IMG/VR virus record: IMGVR_UViG_3300037418_003152
Span: 5,271 to 69,270 of that record
DNA: 64,000 nt
Strand: one strand, 5' to 3'
Source of the DNA: a virus
Taxonomy: Duplodnaviria; Caudoviricetes
The stretch's first letter is position 1, and the number at the start of each line of letters is the position of its first letter. This document shows positions 1 to 55,893 of this stretch, piece by piece. The notes beneath the pieces are model-generated. The model had not been told where the DNA came from. It did no database searches and was given only the letters and a program-made list of their open reading frames with translations. Position numbers and translations under genes: made by a program.

Positions 1-473
1 TCGCCGTAGACCGCCGCGGTCGGGAACGCGTTCTTCGGGTAGGTCTCGACGCGGACGACCGTGAAGACCAGCCGGTCGCCGTTGACCCGGCTGATGTTGA
101 CCTCGTCGCCGGCGCGCAGCTCGTGCAGGCGGGCGAACACGCCGGGGGTGCCGTGGGCGTTGACGTGGCCGAGCAGCACCGCCGGGCCGGGCTGGCCCGG
201 CGCGGGGGAGTAGCGGAACCACGACGCCTGTTCGGGGTGGTCCAGCGGTGGCACCTCGACGGTGTGGTCGGGGTTGAGCCCGGTCTGGATCAGCGTGGAG
301 TGCACCCCGATCGCGGGGATGTCCACGACGGTCGGATAGATCTGGCCCAGGGCGAGCGTGGGCGCCGACGCGGGCGCGGGCCCCGCGGGCGCCGGGGCGG
401 CGGCGTGGCCGCACCCGGCGAGCACCGTGAGCACCGCGAGCACCGCGACCCCGGCCAGCCGGGGCAGCTTCAC
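1..473 (-). CDS. Class F sortase, lipoprotein (3' end truncated by window edge)
   Basis: Not in ORF track. Manual translation from GTG 473: MKLPRLAGVAVLAVLTVLAGCG (lipobox LAGC)...VDIPAIGVHSTLIQTGLNPDHTVEVPPLDHPEQASWFRYSPAPGQPGPAVLLGHVNAHGTPGVFARLHELRAGDEV...VETYPKNAFPTAAVYG; typical sortase F pattern incl. catalytic His (GHV). GTGA overlap with upstream gene. Confidence 0.88.
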   Translation of the reverse strand, partial: MKLPRLAGVAVLAVLTVLAGCGHAAAPAPAGPAPASAPTLALGQIYPTVVDIPAIGVHSTLIQTGLNPDHTVEVPPLDHPEQASWFRYSPAPGQPGPAVLLGHVNAHGTPGVFARLHELRAGDEVNISRVNGDRLVFTVVRVETYPKNAFPTAAVYG

Positions 474-1015
474 GCCGCGCCGGTGTCGGCGGCGCCGACC
501 GGGATCTCGGCGACCTGGCCGGTGCTGGGCGGCGCGGGCGGCAGAGGCGGGAGGGTGCTCAGCGGCGGCAGGGCGGTGGGCGCGGTCGTGGGCGCCGCCG
601 TCGTGGGCGGGGTGAGCGGGGTGCAGCCGGCGAGGGTGCGCGCGGCGTCGAGCTTGCCGGTCAGCTCGTCGACGACCGGGGCGTCGAGGCCGAGCTGGGC
701 GATGCCCTCGACGGTCATCGCCGCACACACGCGCAGCTTGACCGTCGCGATGTCGACCGGGCCGGCGTCACAGCCGATGGCCTTGCGGGCGCTCGCGAGC
801 GCCGCGGCGTTGGGCAGGTCGGCGGGCAGCAGCGAGCGCAGCGGGTCCACTGTGCGCGCCGCGGCGATGGTCTCGGCGGTCAGCAGCGAGCACGCGTCGC
901 CGGCCGGGGCCGGGGTGATGTCGGCCGCCGGGGCCGGGGTCGCGGCGGCGGCGACCGCGACCGGCAGGGTCAGCGCGGTGGCCATGGTCGTTGCGAGCAG
1001 GGCGCGGATGAGCAT
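470..1015 (-). CDS. Secreted Pro/Thr-rich protein, candidate sortase F substrate
   Basis: N-terminal signal peptide, P/T-rich linker, C-terminus QVAEIPVGAADTGAA; stop overlaps the sortase start. Confidence 0.7.
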   Translation of the reverse strand: MLIRALLATTMATALTLPVAVAAAATPAPAADITPAPAGDACSLLTAETIAAARTVDPLRSLLPADLPNAAALASARKAIGCDAGPVDIATVKLRVCAAMTVEGIAQLGLDAPVVDELTGKLDAARTLAGCTPLTPPTTAAPTTAPTALPPLSTLPPLPPAPPSTGQVAEIPVGAADTGAA

Positions 1016-1065
1016 TCGGGATGCCTCCTGGGTGGGGTGTGGGGAAACGGGCGGCGGGTGGGTGC

Positions 1066-1893
1066 TCAGTTGCCGAGCAAGGTCCCGTCACCCGGGGCCG
1101 CGGTGGTTGTGACCGCGGGTGGGGTCGAGGTGGGTGGCGCGGGTGTCGTGGGCGACTGGGTGGGTGAGGCGGATGGCTGGTCGTCGACCACGCACCCGTC
1201 ACCCACCTGCCCGTCCGCGTAGGTCACCCGCCCGACGTGGTCACCCGGCGGGCAGGCGGGCGGCGGGTGGGCGGCCATGTAGTCGGCGACCGCGGCGGCG
1301 ATCTGGGCCTGCGTGGGGCCGGGGCCGGGCTCGCCGTTCTTGCCGGGCGCGGGCGGGTGGTCAGCCAGGTAGGTGCTCACCGCCGCGGCGATCTCCGCGG
1401 CCGTCGGGGCGCGCCCGGGCGCGGGCGGGTGGCTGGTCAGGTAGTCGGCGACCGCGGTGGTGATCTCGGCGGTGGTGGGCGCCCGCCCGGCGGGCGGCGG
1501 GTGCGCGGCCAGGTAGGCCGCGACCGCGGCGGAGATCTGCGCCGGGTCGGGCCCGGGGCCCTGCGGGCCGACGATGACGGCGGGGCTGGCCTTGACCGCG
1601 GCGGCCTGCTGGCAGGCCCCGATCGCGCGCAGCTGGTCGGCGGTCTGACCGCCGGCCGCGCACGCCGCGGTGACCTGGTCGGCCAGCCCGGAGGCCTGCT
1701 GCGCGGTCGCGTCGCGCTGCTGCACGGCGTGGTCCTTCTCCGCGGTGGCCTTCGCGGTGCTGTGGTTCGAGGTCGCGACAGCGACGGTCAGGGCGATGGC
1801 GGCGACGAGCACGCACACCCCGACGAACGCGCGCAGCCCGAACCGGGACAGCGAGACCAGCCGGGTACGAGCGCGACTCACTATGGCGGGCAT
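1066..1893 (-). CDS. Membrane-anchored protein with four Pro-rich repeats (A-x-I-x-x-AV-x-x-Y-L/M-x-x-HPP)
   Basis: Start reassigned to ATG 1893 (MPAIVSRARTRL); one N-terminal TM helix; four repeats visible. Confidence 0.65.
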   Translation of the reverse strand: MPAIVSRARTRLVSLSRFGLRAFVGVCVLVAAIALTVAVATSNHSTAKATAEKDHAVQQRDATAQQASGLADQVTAACAAGGQTADQLRAIGACQQAAAVKASPAVIVGPQGPGPDPAQISAAVAAYLAAHPPPAGRAPTTAEITTAVADYLTSHPPAPGRAPTAAEIAAAVSTYLADHPPAPGKNGEPGPGPTQAQIAAAVADYMAAHPPPACPPGDHVGRVTYADGQVGDGCVVDDQPSASPTQSPTTPAPPTSTPPAVTTTAAPGDGTLLGN

Positions 1894-2754: not shown

Positions 2755-3972
2755 CTAGTAGTTGATGTTGCCGGTGAGGCCGGGGTCGATGCCCCAGTCC
2801 TCGGCCCAGATCTGGGCGGGCTCGTCGGAGGAGCCGACCATGCCGAACGTCGACGACCCGGCGCCGATCATGCTGATCAGGCAGCGCACGGTGACGGAGC
2901 TGGCGACGGTCAGCCACCCCGACAGCGGGATGCCGATCGGGGTGCCAGAGGGCGGCAGGTAGCCGGGCTGGTGCGACAGCGAGATCGATGTGCCGAGCAC
3001 GTTCCCGCCGTTGTCGCGGTCGGGTGCGGTGCCGTCGGTGGTGTAGGTGAGGTAGTAGTTCGCGATGGACTGGCTTGCCGCGTCGCCCCAGGCGCCGAAC
3101 AGGGAGCCGACCTGGTAGATGCGGCCCGCGACGGCGGGGAAGCTGAACTCGAAGAACTTGCTGTGCACCGACGCGGCGATCGATCCCTTGTTGCCGCTGC
3201 TGCGTAGCCCACGCCCGACGTAGCGTCGCTGCCCGGGGGAGACCCAGGTGCCCGGGGTGCCGGCGACGGTGCAGATCCACACGTTGCCGGTCTGGTCGAT
3301 GACGAAGTCGCCCTTGGCGAACGTGCCGGTGGTCGGGGCGCCCGACGTCGTGCCCCCGACGTAGCGGGTGGCGGCGGTCGCACCGGTCAAGCCGAGCGGC
3401 AGCCCGAGGGTCCACGCGCCCGCGTCGATCCACGTTCCAGGCGTACCGGCCCCGGTGCAGATCCAGACGTGGCCGTTCTGCGCGATCACGTAGTCGCCGA
3501 CCGCGAACGTGCCGGTCGTCGGGGCGCCCGAGGTGGTGGCGCCGACGTAGCGGGTGGCCGACGCCGCACCGGTCAGCGCGAGCGGCAGCCCGAGCACCGA
3601 GGCCCACTGCAGCCCGTTCGTCGCGCCGGACTGCGCCTGCAGCACCTGCCCGTTGGAGCCGACCCCGAGCCGGGTCGCCGCGCCGGCCCCGGAGGCGACG
3701 AGCAGGTCGCCCTTCGCGGTGAACGTGGAGGCGATGTTGAGGTTGAGCTGCACCCACGCCGCGCCGGTGTCGTAGTAGACGGCCTGGGTGTCGGTGGCCA
3801 GGTAGAGCCGGCCGTGGATCGCGGCGGCCGGGCGCGCGGCCAGCGTGCCTTCGGCGAACACGACCGCGACCGCGTCGAGCGCGTTGGCCAGCCGCAGCAT
3901 GTCGGCGGGCACGTTGTTCGGGTCGGTCGCGGTTGGGACCTGGAGACCGAGGCGGGTCGTCGTGGTGGTCAC
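2755..3972 (-). CDS. Tail fibre / receptor-binding protein
   Basis: N-terminal TTRLGLQVP..DPNNVPADMLRLANALD anchor typical of actinophage fibres; G/T-rich; duplicated ~60-aa module; follows baseplate genes. Confidence 0.75.
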   Translation of the reverse strand: MTTTTTRLGLQVPTATDPNNVPADMLRLANALDAVAVVFAEGTLAARPAAAIHGRLYLATDTQAVYYDTGAAWVQLNLNIASTFTAKGDLLVASGAGAATRLGVGSNGQVLQAQSGATNGLQWASVLGLPLALTGAASATRYVGATTSGAPTTGTFAVGDYVIAQNGHVWICTGAGTPGTWIDAGAWTLGLPLGLTGATAATRYVGGTTSGAPTTGTFAKGDFVIDQTGNVWICTVAGTPGTWVSPGQRRYVGRGLRSSGNKGSIAASVHSKFFEFSFPAVAGRIYQVGSLFGAWGDAASQSIANYYLTYTTDGTAPDRDNGGNVLGTSISLSHQPGYLPPSGTPIGIPLSGWLTVASSVTVRCLISMIGAGSSTFGMVGSSDEPAQIWAEDWGIDPGLTGNINY

Positions 3973-4018
3973 TCGACCACCTCCAATCGCAAGCGAGGGG
4001 CCGAGTGGGGAGCGCGGC

Positions 4019-4738
4019 TCAGGTGCCGGGCGGAGCCGAGGTCATCGCCGAGTAGGTGCCGTAGTGGCTGGTCGTGGCCGAATACGTCGAGCCCCACGTC
4101 TCAGCCGAGAGCTGCGCGTAGGTCTGCCCGACCCCGACCACCAGGTTGAGCACCAGCCCGGCGGGCTTGGCGGCCTCCAGCGCGACCGCGAGCTCGTCGG
4201 CGCCGCTGGCGAAGTCGGCGTAGGTGGGGAACGCACCGTCGAGCAGCGCATAGGTGGCGTACTCGTGGGACAGGTCGCCGTAGGACTGGCCGACGACCTG
4301 GCTGCCGTACACCACGACGGTCAGCAGGTACGGGTCGTTGGCGTCGCGCTCGACCAGCTGGATGGTCTGGGCGCCGGTGAGGTAGCGCTGCGCGGCGGCG
4401 ATGATCGCGGCGGGGGTGCCGCGGGCGAACCCGGACTCGGCGAGGATCTGGGCGCGCTGGGCGTCCTCGGTCGCCGCCGGGTCGATCTGGGTGCCGACGA
4501 ACTGCGCGAGCCAGGTGATGCCCTCGGTGGGCACCCGGTCCGGGTCGAGCAGCTGCGACCAGCCGGGGCCATCGTCGGTGTCGCGGCACAGGTCGTCGAC
4601 GGCCTGCAGCAGCCGCCCGGCGATGGCGTCGCAGAACCGCAGTAGCGGATAGCCCAGCTGCTCGTCCCCGGCGGTGATCGGGCCGAGCTCGTCGTAGAGC
4701 AGCTGTCCGGCGGCGGTGACGGCGGGCGGGGCGGTCAT
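4019..4738 (-). CDS. Baseplate wedge / tail protein (P2 gpI-like)
   Basis: Start ATG 4738; PDRVPTEGITWLAQFVG and RGTPAAI motifs; directly downstream of baseplate J. Confidence 0.7.
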   Translation of the reverse strand: MTAPPAVTAAGQLLYDELGPITAGDEQLGYPLLRFCDAIAGRLLQAVDDLCRDTDDGPGWSQLLDPDRVPTEGITWLAQFVGTQIDPAATEDAQRAQILAESGFARGTPAAIIAAAQRYLTGAQTIQLVERDANDPYLLTVVVYGSQVVGQSYGDLSHEYATYALLDGAFPTYADFASGADELAVALEAAKPAGLVLNLVVGVGQTYAQLSAETWGSTYSATTSHYGTYSAMTSAPPGT

Positions 4739-5928
4739 GTCGCCGGCGACACGACGACGTTGATCGTGCCGGGGGTCGGGAGCGGGACCGCGCCGGGCAG
4801 CTGCGCGTCCTGCGGTTGCAGCGCGCCGGCGCCGACGGACAGCTGCAGCCCGGACACGAACCTGACGCCGGGCACGGCGGCGAGCACCGCGCCGACGGTC
4901 AGGTAGCGCACCGTCGAGGTGTTGGTCCACGCCGGGGCCGGGCCGCCCCAGTTCGCCGGGGACAGCAGGTCGGTCAGCGCGGCCGCGCAGGCCGCGGTCA
5001 CCGCGGTGAGCGACTGCCCGGGCTGGGCGGTGACCTGCGCGGACACGTTGACCGCGGTGTAGGTCGGGGCGACGACGTTGACCACGAAGTTCACCTCACG
5101 TTGGGCCTCCAGCGCGTCGGCGACCGCGTCCTGCTGGGTGGTGGTGAGCGCGTTGCCCTCGGCGTCGACGACAGCGACGGTGACCATGCGGGCGTTGTTG
5201 AGCGACCCGTCGGCCGGGTTGTAGCCGTCGATCGCGGTGGCGCGGGCGACGGCGGGCTGGTTGCGCGCCAGCGCGGCGAAGTCGGCGGGCAGGATCGGGC
5301 GCGGCGTGAGCAACGTCAGCTCGGTGGCCAGCCGGTCGAGGTAGGCGGCCTGGTCCTCCGGGTCGGCCCCACCGGCGGTGGTGGTGGTGGACACGATGGT
5401 GGCCACGAACGACAGGTTGTCGACCGGGATCAGCTGGGCCGGCGCGAGCCCGTTGGCGGCCGCGGTCGCGACGACGGCCTGCAGGGTGACCCCACCGATC
5501 GCGGTCTGGTACTGCCCGGCGGGCACGGTCACGTCGGCGGTGGTGCGCAGCAGGACCAGCCCGTCGGGGCTGGTGCGGTAGCCGACGGTCGTACCGGCCG
5601 GGATGGTGTGCCCGAGGGTGTCGGTGAGCGTCCACGTGGACTGGCACTGCGCCTGCGATCCGGCCAGCGCCGGCAGGTTCAGCAGCGCGGTCCCGAAGTA
5701 CTGGAAGATGCCCAGCGGCACCTGCGCTGCCACCGCCGCGGTCTCGGCGCACATCCGGGCGAACGCCCGGATCATCCACACCTCGAGGTGGCCCTCGCGG
5801 GGCACCCAGCCGGGCAGCTGCTGGGTGAGGTAGCTCAGGGCCTGGGTGGCGAGGGTGTCGGCGTCGGTGGTGACCGGGAACGACAGGTAGCCGGCCGAGC
5901 TGGACACGGGCTGGGCTGGGGTGGTCAC
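4735..5928 (-). CDS. Baseplate J/gp47 family protein
   Basis: IPAGTTV, GGADPEDQAAYLDR, VRYLTVGAVLAAVPGVRFV motifs; synteny. Confidence 0.88.
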   Translation of the reverse strand: MTTPAQPVSSSAGYLSFPVTTDADTLATQALSYLTQQLPGWVPREGHLEVWMIRAFARMCAETAAVAAQVPLGIFQYFGTALLNLPALAGSQAQCQSTWTLTDTLGHTIPAGTTVGYRTSPDGLVLLRTTADVTVPAGQYQTAIGGVTLQAVVATAAANGLAPAQLIPVDNLSFVATIVSTTTTAGGADPEDQAAYLDRLATELTLLTPRPILPADFAALARNQPAVARATAIDGYNPADGSLNNARMVTVAVVDAEGNALTTTQQDAVADALEAQREVNFVVNVVAPTYTAVNVSAQVTAQPGQSLTAVTAACAAALTDLLSPANWGGPAPAWTNTSTVRYLTVGAVLAAVPGVRFVSGLQLSVGAGALQPQDAQLPGAVPLPTPGTINVVVSPAT

Positions 5929-35178: not shown

Positions 35179-36219
35179 GTGACACATGCCGAGTACCTTG
35201 CGCTGCGCCGGTTTCCCGCCCTCGACGGGCTGCGCGCGGTCGCGGCCGCGCTGGTGGTGTTCTTCCACTTCGGCGGTCCGCACTGGACCTGGGTGTCGGG
35301 CTGGATCGGGGTGCACATCTTCTTCGTGCTCTCCGGGTTCCTCATCACCACGCTGGCGCTGCGCGAGGAGGCCCGCGACGAGCGGGTGTCGCTGCGCAAC
35401 TTCTACCTGCGCCGGGGCGCGCGGATCCTGCCGGTCTACTACGTGGTGGCGGCCGTCGTCGTCGCGCTGGCCTGGGCGCGCGGCGAGCTGGCCGGGCGGC
35501 TGGCCGCGGATCTCCCCTACTACCTGACCTTCACCGGGGAGCTGCTGGGCCCGGGCGAACCCTGGGGGCAGGTCTGGACGCTGGGCATCGAGCAGAAGTT
35601 CTACCTGCTGTGGCCGCTGCTGGCGTTCGCGGTGGCGCTGTCGGTGCGGCGGCGGGCCGCGGTCGCCGTGGCCGTGCTCGCGGTGGTGCTGACGCTGTGC
35701 CCGATCAACGGCATGTTCGTGTCCTACGTGCCGATCGCGGCCGGGTGCCTGCTCGCGGTGGTGCTGCACTGCCCGCGCGGGTTCGCCGCGCTCGCCGGGC
35801 TGACCCGCCCGGTCGGGGCGGTGGTGGCGGCGGCGGTGTTCGCGCTGGCGCATCTGGCGGTCCCGACGCTGACCGCGGCCCTCGGGGAGCCGGGCGCGAT
35901 CCTGGTCTACACCCCGGCGGTGGTGGCGCTGCTGGTGTCGCTGGTCGGCGGGCGGGGCCCGGTGGCGTGGCTGCTGTCGCGGCGCCCGCTGGTGTTCACC
36001 GGGGACCGGTCCTACTCGGTGTATCTGATCCAGAGCGTGGCGGCCACCGTGGTCGGCGCGACGATCCCGGCGCTGGGTACGCATCGCACCGCGACCGCGG
36101 TGGCGGTGCTGGCGGTGGCGGTGGCGATGGCCGATCTGCTGTACCGGTGGGTGGAGCTGCCCGGCATCGTGTGGGGCCGGCGCGCCACCCGGGCGCGGCG
36201 GATCGCGGCGGCGTCGTGA
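35179..36219 (+). CDS. Acyltransferase family 3 (OafA/YrhL-type O-acyltransferase)
   Basis: ALDGLRAVAA, GVHIFFVLSGFLIT, FYLRRGARILP, WTLGIEQKFY, GDRSYSVYLIQ, LYRWVELP motifs; about 10 TM. Confidence 0.92.
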   Translation: MTHAEYLALRRFPALDGLRAVAAALVVFFHFGGPHWTWVSGWIGVHIFFVLSGFLITTLALREEARDERVSLRNFYLRRGARILPVYYVVAAVVVALAWARGELAGRLAADLPYYLTFTGELLGPGEPWGQVWTLGIEQKFYLLWPLLAFAVALSVRRRAAVAVAVLAVVLTLCPINGMFVSYVPIAAGCLLAVVLHCPRGFAALAGLTRPVGAVVAAAVFALAHLAVPTLTAALGEPGAILVYTPAVVALLVSLVGGRGPVAWLLSRRPLVFTGDRSYSVYLIQSVAATVVGATIPALGTHRTATAVAVLAVAVAMADLLYRWVELPGIVWGRRATRARRIAAAS

Positions 36220-39018: not shown

Positions 39019-39588
39019 CTACTTCACCGTCCTTCGGTGCTCGGCCAAGATGGCCTCGACGTCGGGATCGCCGGGCGCCCACGCCCCGGTCAGCGCGTAG
39101 GTGGTGGTCAGCGCGTCGTGCTGCTCCACCCCACGAAGGCTGATGCAGCCGTGCGCTGCGGAGATCACGCACGCCGCGCCGATGGGCTCGAGCACCCGCT
39201 GTAGCGCGGTGGCGACCTGCCAGCCCAGCCGCTCCTGCACCTGCAGCCGGGCCGCGTAGTCGCCGAGCACTCGGGCCAGCTTGGACAGGCCCACCACCGG
39301 GGCGCCGACCCCGGGCCGGTAGGCCACGGTCGCGGTGCCGGTGATCGGCAGCAGGTGATGGGCGCAGGTCGAGCGCACCGCGATCCCCGAGACCATGACC
39401 AGCCCGGGGTCGTGCGGGGCCGGGAACACCTTGGCCAGGTGCCGGGCCGGGTCGACCTGGTAGCCGGCCAGTGCGGCGGCCCATGCCTTGGCCACTCGGT
39501 TCGGGGTGTCGGCGGTGTGCGCGCCCTCGTCGACGCCCAGCGCGGTGAGCAGGTCGGCGACGGCGACGGCGGCCTTTTCCACGTCCAC
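39019..39588 (-). CDS. folE: GTP cyclohydrolase I
   Basis: TPNRVA, STCAHHLLP, LSKLAR, RLQVQER, HGCISLRG. Confidence 0.95.
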   Translation of the reverse strand: MDVEKAAVAVADLLTALGVDEGAHTADTPNRVAKAWAAALAGYQVDPARHLAKVFPAPHDPGLVMVSGIAVRSTCAHHLLPITGTATVAYRPGVGAPVVGLSKLARVLGDYAARLQVQERLGWQVATALQRVLEPIGAACVISAAHGCISLRGVEQHDALTTTYALTGAWAPGDPDVEAILAEHRRTVK

Positions 39589-39591
39589 GGG

Positions 39592-40314
39592 TCAGTGCCC
39601 CCTCTCGTCGCCCCAGGCCAGCACGTGCAGCCGGTGGCTCGCGTTGATGCCCAGTTCGGCGGCCGCGGCGGCCAGCCCCGGCCAGCGCGCGGCCAGCACG
39701 GCCGCAGTGGTGCCCTCGGGCATCACCCAGATCCGTTCGCGCGGGAACCGCATCGCCGCGCCCAGCTCCAGCGCCAGATCGAGATCGGCGCGTTCGGTGA
39801 CGACGACCTTGAGGTGCGCGCCGCCGTGCCAGGGCGCGATGGTGGCCCACCGCGGGTCCATCGCCGGGTCCTGGTGGCCGCGGTGGCCACCGGCGTTGGG
39901 CAGCTTCGGGGACACGCAGATGATCCGGGCGTGCTCGCGGGTGTGGCCGTCCGGCGCGATGGTGCCGTTGGTCTCGATGTGGATCTCGCGGCGGCCGGCC
40001 AGGCGGGCCAGCAGCTCGTGCCAGGCCGGGCGGTGCTGCTGCAACAGCGGTTCCCCGCCGGTGAGCACCACGATCCGGCCGGTGCGGGCCAGCACGGCCT
40101 CGGCTAGCTCGGTCGCGGTGCGCTGGCGGGTCTCCGCGCGCAGGTCGTAGCGGGCGCTGTCCCAGGTGTAGGCCGAGTCGCACCACGCGCACGACAGGTT
40201 GCAGCCGGCGAACCGGATGAACGTGGCGGCCTGCCCGGCGGCGGGCCCCTCCCCCTGCAGGGTCGGGCCGAACAGCTCCACCACCGGCAGCGTGTCCCCG
40301 CTCGGGGCGCTCAC
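39592..40314 (-). CDS. queE: 7-carboxy-7-deazaguanine synthase (radical SAM)
   Basis: GTG 40314; TLQGEG, RFAGCNLSCAWCDS (CxxxCxxC), LTGGEPLLQ, IETNGT, SPKL. Confidence 0.95.
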   Translation of the reverse strand: MSAPSGDTLPVVELFGPTLQGEGPAAGQAATFIRFAGCNLSCAWCDSAYTWDSARYDLRAETRQRTATELAEAVLARTGRIVVLTGGEPLLQQHRPAWHELLARLAGRREIHIETNGTIAPDGHTREHARIICVSPKLPNAGGHRGHQDPAMDPRWATIAPWHGGAHLKVVVTERADLDLALELGAAMRFPRERIWVMPEGTTAAVLAARWPGLAAAAAELGINASHRLHVLAWGDERGH

Positions 40315-40733
40315 CGGGCCCACCGCCACGACGCGGCGTTGACGTGGGTCTCGGCGACCCGCACCGCGACCGCGTCGACCTCGGGGTAGTCGAACAGCCG
40401 TACGCCCCACTCCCCCACCCAGCGGGCGATGTTCTCGGTGGTCGGGTCGGCGGGGCAGACCTTGAGCCCGGGCAGCTCCAGCGCGGTGAGCTCGTCGTGC
40501 TCGTTGAGCAGCAGCCGGTGGTCGTAGGTGCTGTCGAGGTGGCCGCGGAAGGACTGCTTGATCGCGCCGAAGTCCAGCCCGGCCAGGATGCCGTGGTGGT
40601 TGACCCGCCCGGTCAGCTCCAGCTCCACCCACATCGAGTGGCCGTGGATGTTCTCGCAGCGCCCGGGTAGCTGCGAGAGCCGGTGCGCGGTCTCGATGTT
40701 GTGGCGCACCGTCACGGTCTTGACCGGCTCCAT
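40311..40733 (-). CDS. queD: 6-carboxy-5,6,7,8-tetrahydropterin synthase
   Basis: ATG 40733; AHRL..GRCENIHGHS, DFGAIK, YDHRLL, PTTENIA, ETHVN. Confidence 0.93.
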   Translation of the reverse strand: MEPVKTVTVRHNIETAHRLSQLPGRCENIHGHSMWVELELTGRVNHHGILAGLDFGAIKQSFRGHLDSTYDHRLLLNEHDELTALELPGLKVCPADPTTENIARWVGEWGVRLFDYPEVDAVAVRVAETHVNAASWRWAR

Positions 40734-41404
40734 CACGCGGATACTTCGTAGGAGGTGTGGTCGTTGACCCCGGCCAGGGCCATCGCCTCCCGGCGTTCCA
40801 CGCAGGTTCCGCACACCCCGCAGTGGCGGGTGCCGCCCTTGTAGCAGGACCAGGTCTTGTGGATCGGCACGTCGAGCTCGCGGGCCAGGGTCGCGATCGC
40901 GGTCTTGTCGATGTCGACGAACGGGGCGTCGAGGCGCACCGCGTTGTCGGTGCCCAGCTGCACGGCGTTGGACAGCGCCTCGATGAACTCGGGCCGGCAG
41001 TCCGGGTAGATCGGGTGGTCCCCGGCGTGCACCGCGGTGAGCACGACGTCGCAGTGCCGGGCGATCGCGACGCCGGCCGCGGCGCACAGCAGGGTGGCGT
41101 TGCGGTTGGGGACGATGGTCGCGCGCATCGAGGGGGCGGCGTAGTGGCCCTCGGGCACCGGCACCGCGCTATCGGTGAGCGCCGACCCGGTCAGCAGCGC
41201 GCCCCACCCGGTCATGTCCAGCACCTGGTGGTCCACGCCGTAGAACGCGGCGATCTCCGTGGCCGCGGTCAGCTCGCGGGCGTGGCGCTGCCCGTAGTTG
41301 ACCGACAGCGCCACCGCGGCGGTGCCCTCGCGGTGCGCCTTGGCGAGCAGGGTGGTCGAGTCGAGCCCTCCGGAGAGCAGCACGAGGTCACGTCGAGTGG
41401 GCAT
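40733..41404 (-). CDS. queC: 7-cyano-7-deazaguanine synthase
   Basis: SGGLDST PP-loop, YGQRH, VPNRN, YPDCRPEF, TWSCY..HCGVCGTC. Confidence 0.96.
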   Translation of the reverse strand: MPTRRDLVLLSGGLDSTTLLAKAHREGTAAVALSVNYGQRHARELTAATEIAAFYGVDHQVLDMTGWGALLTGSALTDSAVPVPEGHYAAPSMRATIVPNRNATLLCAAAGVAIARHCDVVLTAVHAGDHPIYPDCRPEFIEALSNAVQLGTDNAVRLDAPFVDIDKTAIATLARELDVPIHKTWSCYKGGTRHCGVCGTCVERREAMALAGVNDHTSYEVSA

Positions 41405-45360: not shown

Positions 45361-45612
45361 TCACGCGGTGACCCGCGTGCGCGCGTTGCGCTGGGCCAGG
45401 GCCCGGCGCTCGTCCTCGTCCAGGCCGCCCCACACGCCGACGCCCTGGCCGGTGGCCAGCGCCCAGGCGAGGCAGTCGCCCACGACGGGGCAGCGGTCGC
45501 AGACGGCCTTGGCCTGCGCGATCTGGTCTCGCGAGGACTCGCCGCTTCCCAGGGGGAAGAACAGCTCGGGGTCCTCACCGACGCATGCGGCCTGGTGGCG
45601 CCAATCCTTCAT
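45361..45612 (-). CDS. whiB: WhiB-family transcription factor
   Basis: Four Cys (C-x-DPELFFP...CDRCPV..C) and GVWGG turn. Confidence 0.95.
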   Translation of the reverse strand: MKDWRHQAACVGEDPELFFPLGSGESSRDQIAQAKAVCDRCPVVGDCLAWALATGQGVGVWGGLDEDERRALAQRNARTRVTA

Positions 45613-54048: not shown

Positions 54049-55893
54049 CTACGCGGCCACCTGGCCGTGCAGCACGGCGCGCAGTCGCGCCCCGATCCAC
54101 TCCCCGACCTGCGGGGACACCGCGTTGCCGAACCCGTCGACCTGGTCGCGGGCGCTGCCCCACACGACGAACGCGCCGTCGTAACCGGGGAAGTCGACGT
54201 CGAACCCGCAGCCGCGGCCGACCTCGTGAGCGGCCATCATCCGGAAGAAGCAGTCCTCCAGCGGCAGCTCAGCCAGCGAGGCCCGCCACTGCGCCATCAG
54301 CAGCGCCGTCGTGTCCCGCGAGGTGAGCGTGCCCAGCGGATCCGACATCGGGTGCGGCGCGGTCTCGTTGCCCTGCACGCCGTTCTGCTTGTACCAGCCC
54401 GAGAACAGCACCGAGCCGTGGTTGCCGGCGCCGACAAGCGTCCGCAGAGGGCTATCCACCGGGTGGACACGGCCCGCGATGCCATCGTTCTGCTGGATCA
54501 CTCCGGCCGCGGTGAGCAGCCCCGGGCGCTGATCGGCGGTGACCGTCGGCATCGCCTCGGCGTGCATCGCCGGCAGCGTGTTCTGCCGGAACGGCACCAC
54601 CCCCGAGGACACCAGCGCCAACGTCTCCGACCCGACCTGGGTGGGTAGCGGGTCACCAGCGCCGCGCGGGGCCCCCTGGTAGTTGTCCACCGCCAGCGCG
54701 ACCGGCGGCGTCACCAGCCCGACGGTGTTGGTCGCGGGCTGAGTCCACAGAGGCTGATCCAGGCCCCGCGAGCGGCAGTCCGACCCCGGGCGCTCGAACC
54801 GGTTGCCCGCAGCGACGATCACCGCCCCGGTCGAGAGCAGCCCGGTCTCCTGCTGGCTGGTCTGGGTGGCCATCGGCTGCCACGGGTGGCGCTCCGACCC
54901 GTGCACAGCCTTCGCCGGCATGAGGATCGCCGGGAACTCGGCGAACCGGGCCCGGCAGCGCTCCGCGCGGGCCATCGTCGAGGCGGCGAGCGGACGCTTG
55001 CGGTCCCCGATGCGGGTCCCAAGGTCGGTCAGGTCGAGCGCGGCCAGCGACGGCGTCATCGGCGGCACCACCGCGGCGCGACACCGCGGGCAGCGGTACT
55101 CGTACTGCTTGCCGTAGCGCACCGCACCCGTCGGCGGCACCCCCGTCTTCCACGACCACACCCCCTCGACGACCTGGTCGCAGCGCCCACACCAGGCGTG
55201 CGGCCGGTGGTCGAGGTCCGGGGTCGGTAGCCGCCGGTCCCAGAACGCCCAGTAGCCCCGGTCCCGCGACTGCGGCACCCCGAAGAACATCGAGTTGAGG
55301 TAGAGCAGCTTGTGGCGGTAGCCCAGCTTCTCGAACTCGCGCAGCCACCACCGGTACGTCGACCCGTCGCCCACCTTCGGCCGGCCCGGGATCGCCGGCC
55401 CCCACGAGACGAGCTCGGTGGTGCACTCGACCAGGATCAGCTGCGGGTGGTGCTGGGCGGCGTAGTGCAGCACGCAGTTCGCCGTCGCCCGGTCCCGCTC
55501 CGAGCGGGTCACCCGGGCATCGAAGTCCGGGTCGTCGAGGTCGAACAGCGACAACCCCTGCGCGTAGGCCTTCTGGGTGTTCGCTGGGGAGTGGTTCACG
55601 CAGCTGACCCCGGCGACCAGCAGGTCGGCGGCCGGCAGGTCGCGCGCGGAGTGGTAGTCCGAGGACTCGGGGTCGACCAGATCGGCGATCCAGTGCTCGG
55701 CTTCCGGATGGTTGGCCTCGTGCACCTCGACCTTGTAGCGGTTGTGGTTCGCCGCCATGATCGTGGTGAAGCCGGCCTGCTTGATGCCCGTGGTGAGCCC
55801 CCCGAACCCGGAGAACAGATCGACCGCGACCAGGTCGTCGTGCGCGAAGCGGCGCCGGCGGGTGGCTGGCCGGTGCTCGGCAGTGGCGGCCAC
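54049..55893 (-). CDS. C5-cytosine DNA methyltransferase (atypical motifs)
   Basis: Motif I DLFSGFGG; motif IV-like AGVSC; motif VI-like VECT; QSRDRGY (motif VIII); motif X FGNAVSP. Confidence 0.85.
   Translation of the reverse strand: MAATAEHRPATRRRRFAHDDLVAVDLFSGFGGLTTGIKQAGFTTIMAANHNRYKVEVHEANHPEAEHWIADLVDPESSDYHSARDLPAADLLVAGVSCVNHSPANTQKAYAQGLSLFDLDDPDFDARVTRSERDRATANCVLHYAAQHHPQLILVECTTELVSWGPAIPGRPKVGDGSTYRWWLREFEKLGYRHKLLYLNSMFFGVPQSRDRGYWAFWDRRLPTPDLDHRPHAWCGRCDQVVEGVWSWKTGVPPTGAVRYGKQYEYRCPRCRAAVVPPMTPSLAALDLTDLGTRIGDRKRPLAASTMARAERCRARFAEFPAILMPAKAVHGSERHPWQPMATQTSQQETGLLSTGAVIVAAGNRFERPGSDCRSRGLDQPLWTQPATNTVGLVTPPVALAVDNYQGAPRGAGDPLPTQVGSETLALVSSGVVPFRQNTLPAMHAEAMPTVTADQRPGLLTAAGVIQQNDGIAGRVHPVDSPLRTLVGAGNHGSVLFSGWYKQNGVQGNETAPHPMSDPLGTLTSRDTTALLMAQWRASLAELPLEDCFFRMMAAHEVGRGCGFDVDFPGYDGAFVVWGSARDQVDGFGNAVSPQVGEWIGARLRAVLHGQVAA

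Follow-up and report, generated by a model that had tools for sequence, protein, structure and literature searches.

The 64,000 nucleotides of viral DNA considered here, referred to as the window, are bases 5271-69270 of a single 69,270-bp contig, the IMG/VR virus record IMGVR_UViG_3300037418_003152 (Duplodnaviria; Caudoviricetes), which has a GC content of 73% and offers 5,270 further bases to the left. At the left end of the window, on the minus strand and amid phage genes, lie two translationally coupled genes that encode a 181-aa protein with a secretion signal and a distinctive C-terminal tag and, directly downstream, a class F sortase. These genes probably form a dedicated sortase-substrate cassette borne by a phage (the studied phage hereafter), in which the tag would be what sortases of this branch of class F recognise and the passenger, i.e. 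the domain to which it is appended, would be fixed to the wall of the host. In filamentous actinobacteria, no other sortase class is as large as class F. The substrates and roles of this class are given as unknown in reviews and in a 2026 mBio paper (PMC8225981, PMC13251363), in which the secreted proteins encoded beside srtF1 and srtF4 of Actinoplanes were set aside as substrates since no pentapeptide motif was found in them (PMC13251363).

The sortase is missing from the default list of open reading frames (ORFs) because its frame runs off the left end of the window, and it had been noticed there in a reading made from the letters of the window alone (the sequence-only reading). Extending the contig leftward yielded a complete 198-aa gene, and the class F assignment made in that reading has held up, as NF033748, the class F profile, scores 187.3 bits against a cut-off of 166 (residues 42-189 covering model positions 6-153 of 155) and the Pfam Sortase family 81 bits. 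The protein starts with the expected lipoprotein signal (VKLPRLAGVAVLAVLTVLAGC, …LTVLAGC, lipobox LAGC) and is predicted to be tethered to the membrane by a lipid anchor followed by a Pro/Ala linker. Its AlphaFold2 model has a pLDDT of 84 overall and above 90 over residues 45-190, and a Foldseek search of the PDB returned 122 matches at E<=0.001, all those listed being sortases (classes C, A, E and D) with a TM of ~0.57. The probability was 1.0 for sortases C, A and E, and the ranking among classes is nearly flat. There is no class F structure in the PDB, where sequence and profile searches reach only the His region.

A His-Cys-Arg triad is stated for all sortases (PMC8225981), and the studied phage sortase has its His and Cys. 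The motifs LGH103 and LRLITC169GG, the latter with its Cys169 outside the window, are invariant across 17 aligned sequences (alignment A1), so that the expectation of a catalytic motif in the sequence-only reading stands for His103 and LITC169GG, and no functional counterpart of the canonical Arg could be located. At the site where this residue is expected, after a conserved Tyr, the phage has Y-L-D-N versus Y-R-D-N in many relatives. Among ~80 relatives, the residue at this position is variable, with Leu as its commonest state (L 26, E 13, V 12, R 11, K 7 and others), and is therefore not a conserved catalytic residue in this branch, in which the invariant Arg residues of alignment A1 are R115 and R165. 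For the same reason, the idea of an enzyme dead through loss of its catalytic Arg was rejected, and the uncertainty concerns the chemistry of the whole branch rather than a defect of the phage copy.

The 181-aa protein ends in GQVAEIPVGAADTGAA (...IPVGAADTGAA) and has, by inspection, the secretion signal ascribed to it in the sequence-only reading. All 22 sortase-adjacent proteins have such a signal, and the relatives of the 181-aa protein show clearer signal peptides in the same place. The core of its tag, QVAEIPVGAADTG, fits the profile of class F neighbours described below at every conserved position and is not LPXTG. Just Ala-Ala follows the TG, and both a hydrophobic segment after the tag and a positively charged tail are absent (the tag-bearing C-terminus, as a peptide, is QVAEIPVGAADTGAA). 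Upstream of the tag is a Pro/Thr-rich linker of the type that spans the wall in anchored surface proteins, and the succession of signal peptide, domain, Pro/Thr stalk and tag is the architecture of such proteins. The tag is carried by no other real gene of the phage, which led us to reject other phage proteins as sortase substrates and leaves the alternative suggestion of the sequence-only reading, processing of virion or lysis proteins, without support.

Relatives of the 181-aa protein proved rare. It matches no NCBIfam, Pfam or PHROG family and does not match the choice-of-anchor P HMM (NF040603); a word-indexed protein search found no relatives, and single-sequence scans of IMG/VR gave no match for either it or the sortase. 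An exhaustive HMMER search of 1.8 billion representatives returned six weak matches, four of which are true full-length relatives; P0125 (a PKD/T9SS protein) and P0128 (a CD39-family repeat protein) were discarded as spurious. The four relatives (170-225 aa) align end to end, have in common four Cys and the motif QVxx[IV]PxGxxxTG, and all directly precede a sortase gene with overlapping stop and start codons. Two of them end one or two residues past the TG, as does the phage protein, and the other two (P0126 and P0127) have, after the tag, a hydrophobic segment plus RRRRW or YRRRA and thus a full tripartite sorting signal. These two relatives, in which the shared tag is extended by a hydrophobic stretch and an Arg tail, mark the tag as a sorting signal. 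The passenger itself is modelled as all-alpha over residues 40-130 with a pLDDT of ~70, a model of modest quality that has no Foldseek match in the PDB at E<=0.001 and gave no lead in the ESM Atlas (all TM <0.5).

Conservation of both tag and pairing was apparent in a survey of 16 IMG/VR contigs and 80 bacterial genome loci encoding class F sortases. In 66/82 bacterial loci, the ORF next upstream of the sortase has the P.G...TG core at its C-terminal end, 42 times with a hydrophobic segment and basic tail and 24 times tail-less, the remaining loci being mostly spacing variants or mis-called ORFs. The core is present in nearly all of the 20 viral or metagenomic loci, where it is tail-less in all but L006 and L007. 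As a control, the strict pattern was sought near the C-terminus of other high-GC3 ORFs of the same loci and occurred in 1/1,008, versus most of the sortase-adjacent ORFs, hence the C-terminal motif is far beyond chance, and the occurrence of PxGxxxTG ends beside class F sortases, which the sequence-only reading had brought up, is now documented. The profile drawn from 74 unique sortase-adjacent tags reads Q(67%)-V(55%)-x-x-V-P-x-G-[A/G]-[P/V/A]-[E/D/Q]-T-G-G-G, with Ile as an alternative to the Val before the Pro; Gln(-12) and Val(-11) emerged although the search pattern had not specified them. Tail-less tags go with lipoprotein-type sortases: with counts that are not phylogenetically independent, sortases with a lipobox are paired with 34 tail-less tags and nine full signals, and those with a transmembrane (TM) helix and no lipobox with five and 35, respectively. 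The stop/start overlap of substrate and sortase seen at first sight in the window is genuine, and overlaps of 4 nt or 1 nt are also found in L004, L005, L006, L007, L009, L011, L012, L013, L018, L020 and L021. The two closest bacterial sortases, from Amycolatopsis, likewise have directly upstream a secreted protein, ending in …VPAGAPQTGDGSLAGN and …IPAGAPQTGDGSLATVIEN, respectively; these neighbours match choice-of-anchor P (NF040603) at 68-87 bits.

The tag is the sole shared part of the phage class F substrates in the IMG/VR loci (L008-L023), whose passengers are diverse. Excalibur-like D.D.DG..CE motifs are seen in L009, L013, L020, L021 and L022, and long helical domains bracketed by Cys in L008, L010, L014, L016, L017 and L018. 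In L015 and L019, the passengers are Gly/Tyr-rich and come with a variant tag, VPVG..AGDGSC.

Could the pair be bacterial DNA, or a decaying hitch-hiker without a function for the phage? The nearest named homologues of the sortase are indeed chromosomal (Amycolatopsis, Lentzea and other Pseudonocardiaceae, 50-60% identity), a comparison with 50,697 deposited phage genomes returned no relative, and neither the sortase nor the 181-aa protein has a family in PHROGs. However, the DNA comes from a virus record and phage genes surround the pair, which lies between tail-fibre-type genes and an endolysin gene, to which it is translationally coupled, in an order that is kept in related phage contigs; the phage origin assumed from the window alone thus stands. 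Both ORFs are intact and keep the family-invariant residues. Moreover, L008 (an IMG/VR contig of 32.6 kb) and L007 (a metagenome contig of 7.8 kb) are syntenic with the studied phage at gene identities of 38-69%, and the sortase is retained despite this divergence. Identities to L008 are 63% for baseplate J, 48% for the P2-I-like protein, 52% for the tail fibre, 64% and 38% for TM proteins of 108 and 184 aa, 59% for a 266-aa repeat protein, 58% for the sortase, 62% for a 153-aa membrane protein, 58% for p123 and 53% for Gp80. L008 has kept the sortase and swapped the passenger for a coiled-coil domain, its lysin being an Amidase_2; L007 has a homologous passenger with a full sorting signal, a TM-anchored sortase and a Rv2525c-type hydrolase as lysin. 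The sortases of the three phages group together (SH-aLRT 90) and viral sortases form clades of their own, with 7 label changes on the tree versus 18.5 expected and 0/500 shuffles as low, the tree being a quick IQ-TREE reconstruction with SH-aLRT support only. Finally, such pairs, for which the sequence-only reading had advocated a survey of phage genomes, were found on 16 IMG/VR contigs near terminase, portal, tail-fibre, lysin and holin genes. That the pair is bacterial DNA or a functionless hitch-hiker is thus largely refuted and, in our estimation, extremely improbable.

The place of the pair in its operon was misjudged from the window alone. It looked like the distal end because the window edge cuts the operon, and the extended contig shows that the sortase TGA overlaps (GTGA, after AGGGAGG) the start of a gene for a 330-aa GH25 endolysin, which in turn shares one base with the gene of the 153-aa membrane protein, with more genes beyond. 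Lysin genes are found 0-1.5 kb downstream of the pair in the studied phage, L007, L008, L013, L015, L017 and L022. The sortase stop overlaps the lysin start in L007 as well, and lies 14 nt before it in L008. In the place of the lysin, L018, L020 and L021 encode a conserved protein of 260-277 aa (…RKYEPA.RC.GGP.PGAKALMA.F…; L018:11586-12368, L020:11551-12381 and L021:11634-12419) with no significant Pfam family, which may be an unrecognised type of lysin. Its coupling to the endolysin gene makes it probable that the cassette is expressed late, together with the lysis proteins; expression in lysogens is possible as well, since the phage has an integrase.

This linkage would also be compatible with an accessory role in lysis, in which consumption of lipid II, or decoration or alteration of the wall just before holin triggering, would make the wall weaker, set the time of lysis or modulate endolysin action. 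The tight spacing of sortase and lysin genes in the studied phage, L007 and L008, and the lysins or holins found within 1.5 kb downstream in at least seven phage loci, are what such a role would lead one to expect. Nevertheless, enzyme-tag pairs of the same kind occur widely in bacterial chromosomes without a lysin in the vicinity, the pair adjoins terminase and portal genes instead in L011 and L016, and phages commonly harbour accessory genes in the interval that separates tail-fibre from lysis genes. We regard a role in lysis as distinctly unlikely.

For display on the wall, the reading that we favour, a sequence of events can be outlined. The 181-aa substrate would be exported by the Sec pathway and the co-translated sortase, lipid-anchored on the outer face of the membrane, would recognise the tag (QVAEIPVGAADTG-AA). 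Cys169 and His103 would cleave after Thr178, releasing Gly-Ala-Ala, and the protein would be transferred, most likely to a peptidoglycan precursor. The four-Cys helical domain would thereby be covalently displayed on the host wall via its Pro/Thr stalk, and the phage might benefit from the surface remodelling that results, e.g. through phage exclusion or the masking of receptors on the cell or on debris.

Several points weigh against this scenario. The late timing is deduced from gene overlap only, simple scans having detected neither a promoter nor a terminator for the cassette (which is expected at such a GC content). The tag comes without the two elements by which a precursor is normally held at the membrane, a hydrophobic segment and a basic tail, so that the sortase would have to capture a freely secreted protein. 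The activity of this branch of sortases is predicted, and the canonical catalytic Arg could not be located, the residue after the conserved Tyr being Leu at a family-variable site. Neither fold nor family searches gave a match from which a role of the passenger might be guessed. The sole characterised class F sortase, that of Cutibacterium acnes, uses LPXTG (PMC8225981), and a quadruple knockout of class F sortases in Actinoplanes had no phenotype (PMC13251363).

The absence of a membrane-retention signal, which fits a soluble substrate, lends some credit to another possibility, namely that enzyme and substrate are a true pair whose product is not anchored to the wall. The two-residue tail might be trimmed and the protein released, or the protein might be ligated to another acceptor, such as a lysine or the N-terminus of an envelope protein, in the manner of pilus sortases, and the closest solved folds do include pilus-polymerising class C sortases. 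One candidate acceptor is the 266-aa membrane protein encoded directly upstream of the substrate, which is conserved with the pair in L005, L007, L008 and L023 and whose GDGTLLGN end resembles TG-DGSLAGN. Against such a product, a classical wall-sorting signal is found in same-tag relatives, a Pro/Thr stalk of this length fits an anchor that spans the wall, no pilin-like domains or pilin-motif lysines were identified, and the Foldseek ranking that brings in class C is nearly flat. On these grounds, we consider a product not anchored to the wall rather unlikely, and anchoring to the wall the probable outcome.

The 266-aa protein deserves mention in its own right. It consists of three AAVA.YLAAHPPP repeats, a Cys-containing domain and a Pro/Thr linker, it has no more than weak matches in Pfam or PHROGs, and its homologues occupy the same position in L007 (69% identity), L008, L005 and L023. 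Its C-terminus (...AAPGDGTLLGN) resembles the post-cleavage ends (TG-DGSLAGN) of Amycolatopsis class F neighbours, and the L007 homologue ends in ...GGGSLLGG. The sortase might have in this protein a second partner or an acceptor, unless the likeness is coincidental.

A wider proposal, which goes beyond the cassette itself and is put forward tentatively, is that lipoprotein-type class F sortases and tail-less QVxxVPxG..TG tags constitute a distinct pathway that captures fully secreted proteins. Actinophages could have adopted this pathway as a cassette with an exchangeable passenger, expressed with the lysis genes and covalently marking the host wall, e.g. in order to hide wall receptors on dying cells and cell debris, which would otherwise cost the phage progeny, or, in lysogens, to keep rival phages out.

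How does the cassette compare with known systems? The closest are the chromosomal class F sortases of Actinomycetota (NF033748, IPR042001), which belong to the same family, have a lipoprotein signal and a substrate gene directly upstream, and whose neighbours (e.g. the choice-of-anchor P proteins of Amycolatopsis) have the P.G[AG]..TG core in common with the phage, including in tail-less forms. The pairs SrtF1/AMIS_11010 and SrtF4/AMIS_36440 of Actinoplanes missouriensis are further chromosomal examples of an enzyme with such an upstream neighbour. In contrast to these, the phage pair sits in the tail-fibre/lysis region, coupled to an endolysin, and its passenger family, absent from the 401 Pseudonocardiaceae genomes searched, is seen only in phage-like contigs. 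The SrtF of C. acnes is of the same class, an actinobacterial cysteine transpeptidase, and is described as a housekeeping enzyme that uses LPXTG like class A (Di Girolamo et al. 2019, as cited in PMC8225981). Judged by that description, the phage tag is longer, with P and TG five residues apart, and lacks a membrane-anchor tail.

Modules consisting of a sortase B and its substrate have been reported in 24 gut huge phages, in a preprint that calls sortases undocumented in viruses (Yuan & Chen, October 2026, bioRxiv 10.64898/2026.10.24.761521). There too, the phage sortase has a putative substrate encoded immediately upstream and wall display of a phage protein is proposed. However, those enzymes are of class B, in phages of Bacillota with genomes >200 kb, whereas the present one is of class F in an actinobacterial phage of ~70 kb. 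Their substrates have PXTG, a hydrophobic segment and a charged tail, whereas the tag in the studied phage is tail-less, and a link to the lysis cassette, present in the studied phage, is not reported in the preprint. A looser parallel may be drawn with the envelope modifiers by which phages block receptors or superinfection. Among these are the T5 Llp lipoprotein and the O-antigen acetyltransferases of temperate phages. Such modifiers would be alike in effect if the anchored protein masks a receptor in the wall, but there is no relation in sequence or fold and covalent attachment by a sortase is another mechanism.

The interest of the case lies in a defined tag, a link between the type of sortase anchor and the form of the tag, and the coupling to lysis genes. 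Together with ~100 related loci, the pair provides a concrete candidate recognition signal for class F, Q-V-x-x-V-P-x-G-[AG]-x-[EDQ]-T-G, and an unexpected rule, that lipid-anchored enzymes pair with tail-less tags. It is also a minimal two-gene system for expression and assay, and a sortase with such a long and distinctive tag could serve in protein ligation. The very recent notion of phage-encoded sortases, which arose from class B enzymes in gut jumbo phages, now takes in soil actinophages of ordinary size, and the position of the module beside lysis genes suggests that the host wall is covalently remodelled late in infection.

Coordinates of the cassette and of other features of the phage (window positions unless prefixed by L001, which denotes the full record)
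Feature	Position	Strand	Basis or remark
Substrate gene, 181 aa	470-1015	-	ORF and translation; signal peptide, ~95-aa four-Cys all-alpha passenger, Pro/Thr-rich stalk, C-terminal tag
Class F sortase gene, first 157/198 codons	1-473	-	final 41 codons left of window
Complete sortase gene, 198 aa	L001:5147-5743		part beyond window, including LITC169GG, is L001:5147-5272
Sortase His103 codon	165-167	-	
GTGA stop/start overlap of substrate and sortase	470-473	-	GCG GCG TGA / GTG AAG CTG; translational coupling
Sortase GTG start codon	473-471	-	
AGGAGG ribosome-binding site	1024-1029	-	sequence; 8-nt spacer to substrate ATG
Sorting tag GQVAEIPVGAADTG, then just two residues (AA)	473-520	-	tail-less class F signal; fits profile of sortase-adjacent C-termini
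Pro/Thr/Ala-rich linker, residues 131-165	521-625	-	sequence; predicted disordered, pLDDT <50
Sec-type signal peptide of substrate, ~27 residues	935-1015	-	by eye: basic residue, hydrophobic stretch, Ala-rich cleavage region
266-aa membrane-anchored repeat protein	1066-1866	-	directly upstream of substrate gene; conserved neighbour of pair
Small membrane protein, 184 aa	1898-2452	-	between tail fibre and 266-aa repeat protein; homologue in L008
Small membrane protein, 108 aa	2383-2709	-	between tail fibre and 266-aa repeat protein; homologue in L008
Tail-fibre-like protein (405 aa), P2-I-like baseplate protein, baseplate J	2755-5928	-	virion genes preceding cassette; Pfam Tail_P2_I, Baseplate_J
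Acyl_transf_3 membrane acyltransferase	35179-36219	+	92 bits
QueC and GTP cyclohydrolase I	39019-41404	-	
WhiB-family transcription factor	45361-45612	-	92 bits
C5 cytosine methylase	54049-55893		
675-aa ORF	L001:1-2100	-	left of window

A homologue of the small membrane proteins is also found in L023 (46%), in which the gene order is the same as in L008 and the studied phage. To the left of the window, the 153-aa membrane protein is followed by small genes, a Gp80-type fibre protein and, downstream of the latter, the 675-aa ORF, which exits the left end of the contig. The contig has no terminal repeat, and the genome record is probably incomplete or cut inside this ORF.

Other genes speak to the identity of the phage and its host. 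The contig encodes a portal, a major capsid protein, a tyrosine integrase, QueC, GTP cyclohydrolase I and a C5 methylase. Neither the passenger family, in 401 Pseudonocardiaceae genomes searched, nor the capsid, in 401 genomes sampled from the order, was found. The relatives of the sortase, the GC content and the WhiB-family transcription factor, such factors being typical of actinobacteria and of the phages that infect them, all point to an actinobacterial, high-GC host. The presence of QueC, GTP cyclohydrolase I and the C5 cytosine methylase suggests that the phage DNA carries modifications of the 7-deazaguanine type and methylation. Lastly, the Acyl_transf_3 gene lies on the strand opposite to the cassette, ~1.4 kb away from the gene for the integrase. 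Temperate phages use such genes to modify surface polysaccharide, and the acyltransferase would be a second envelope-modifying function of the same phage.

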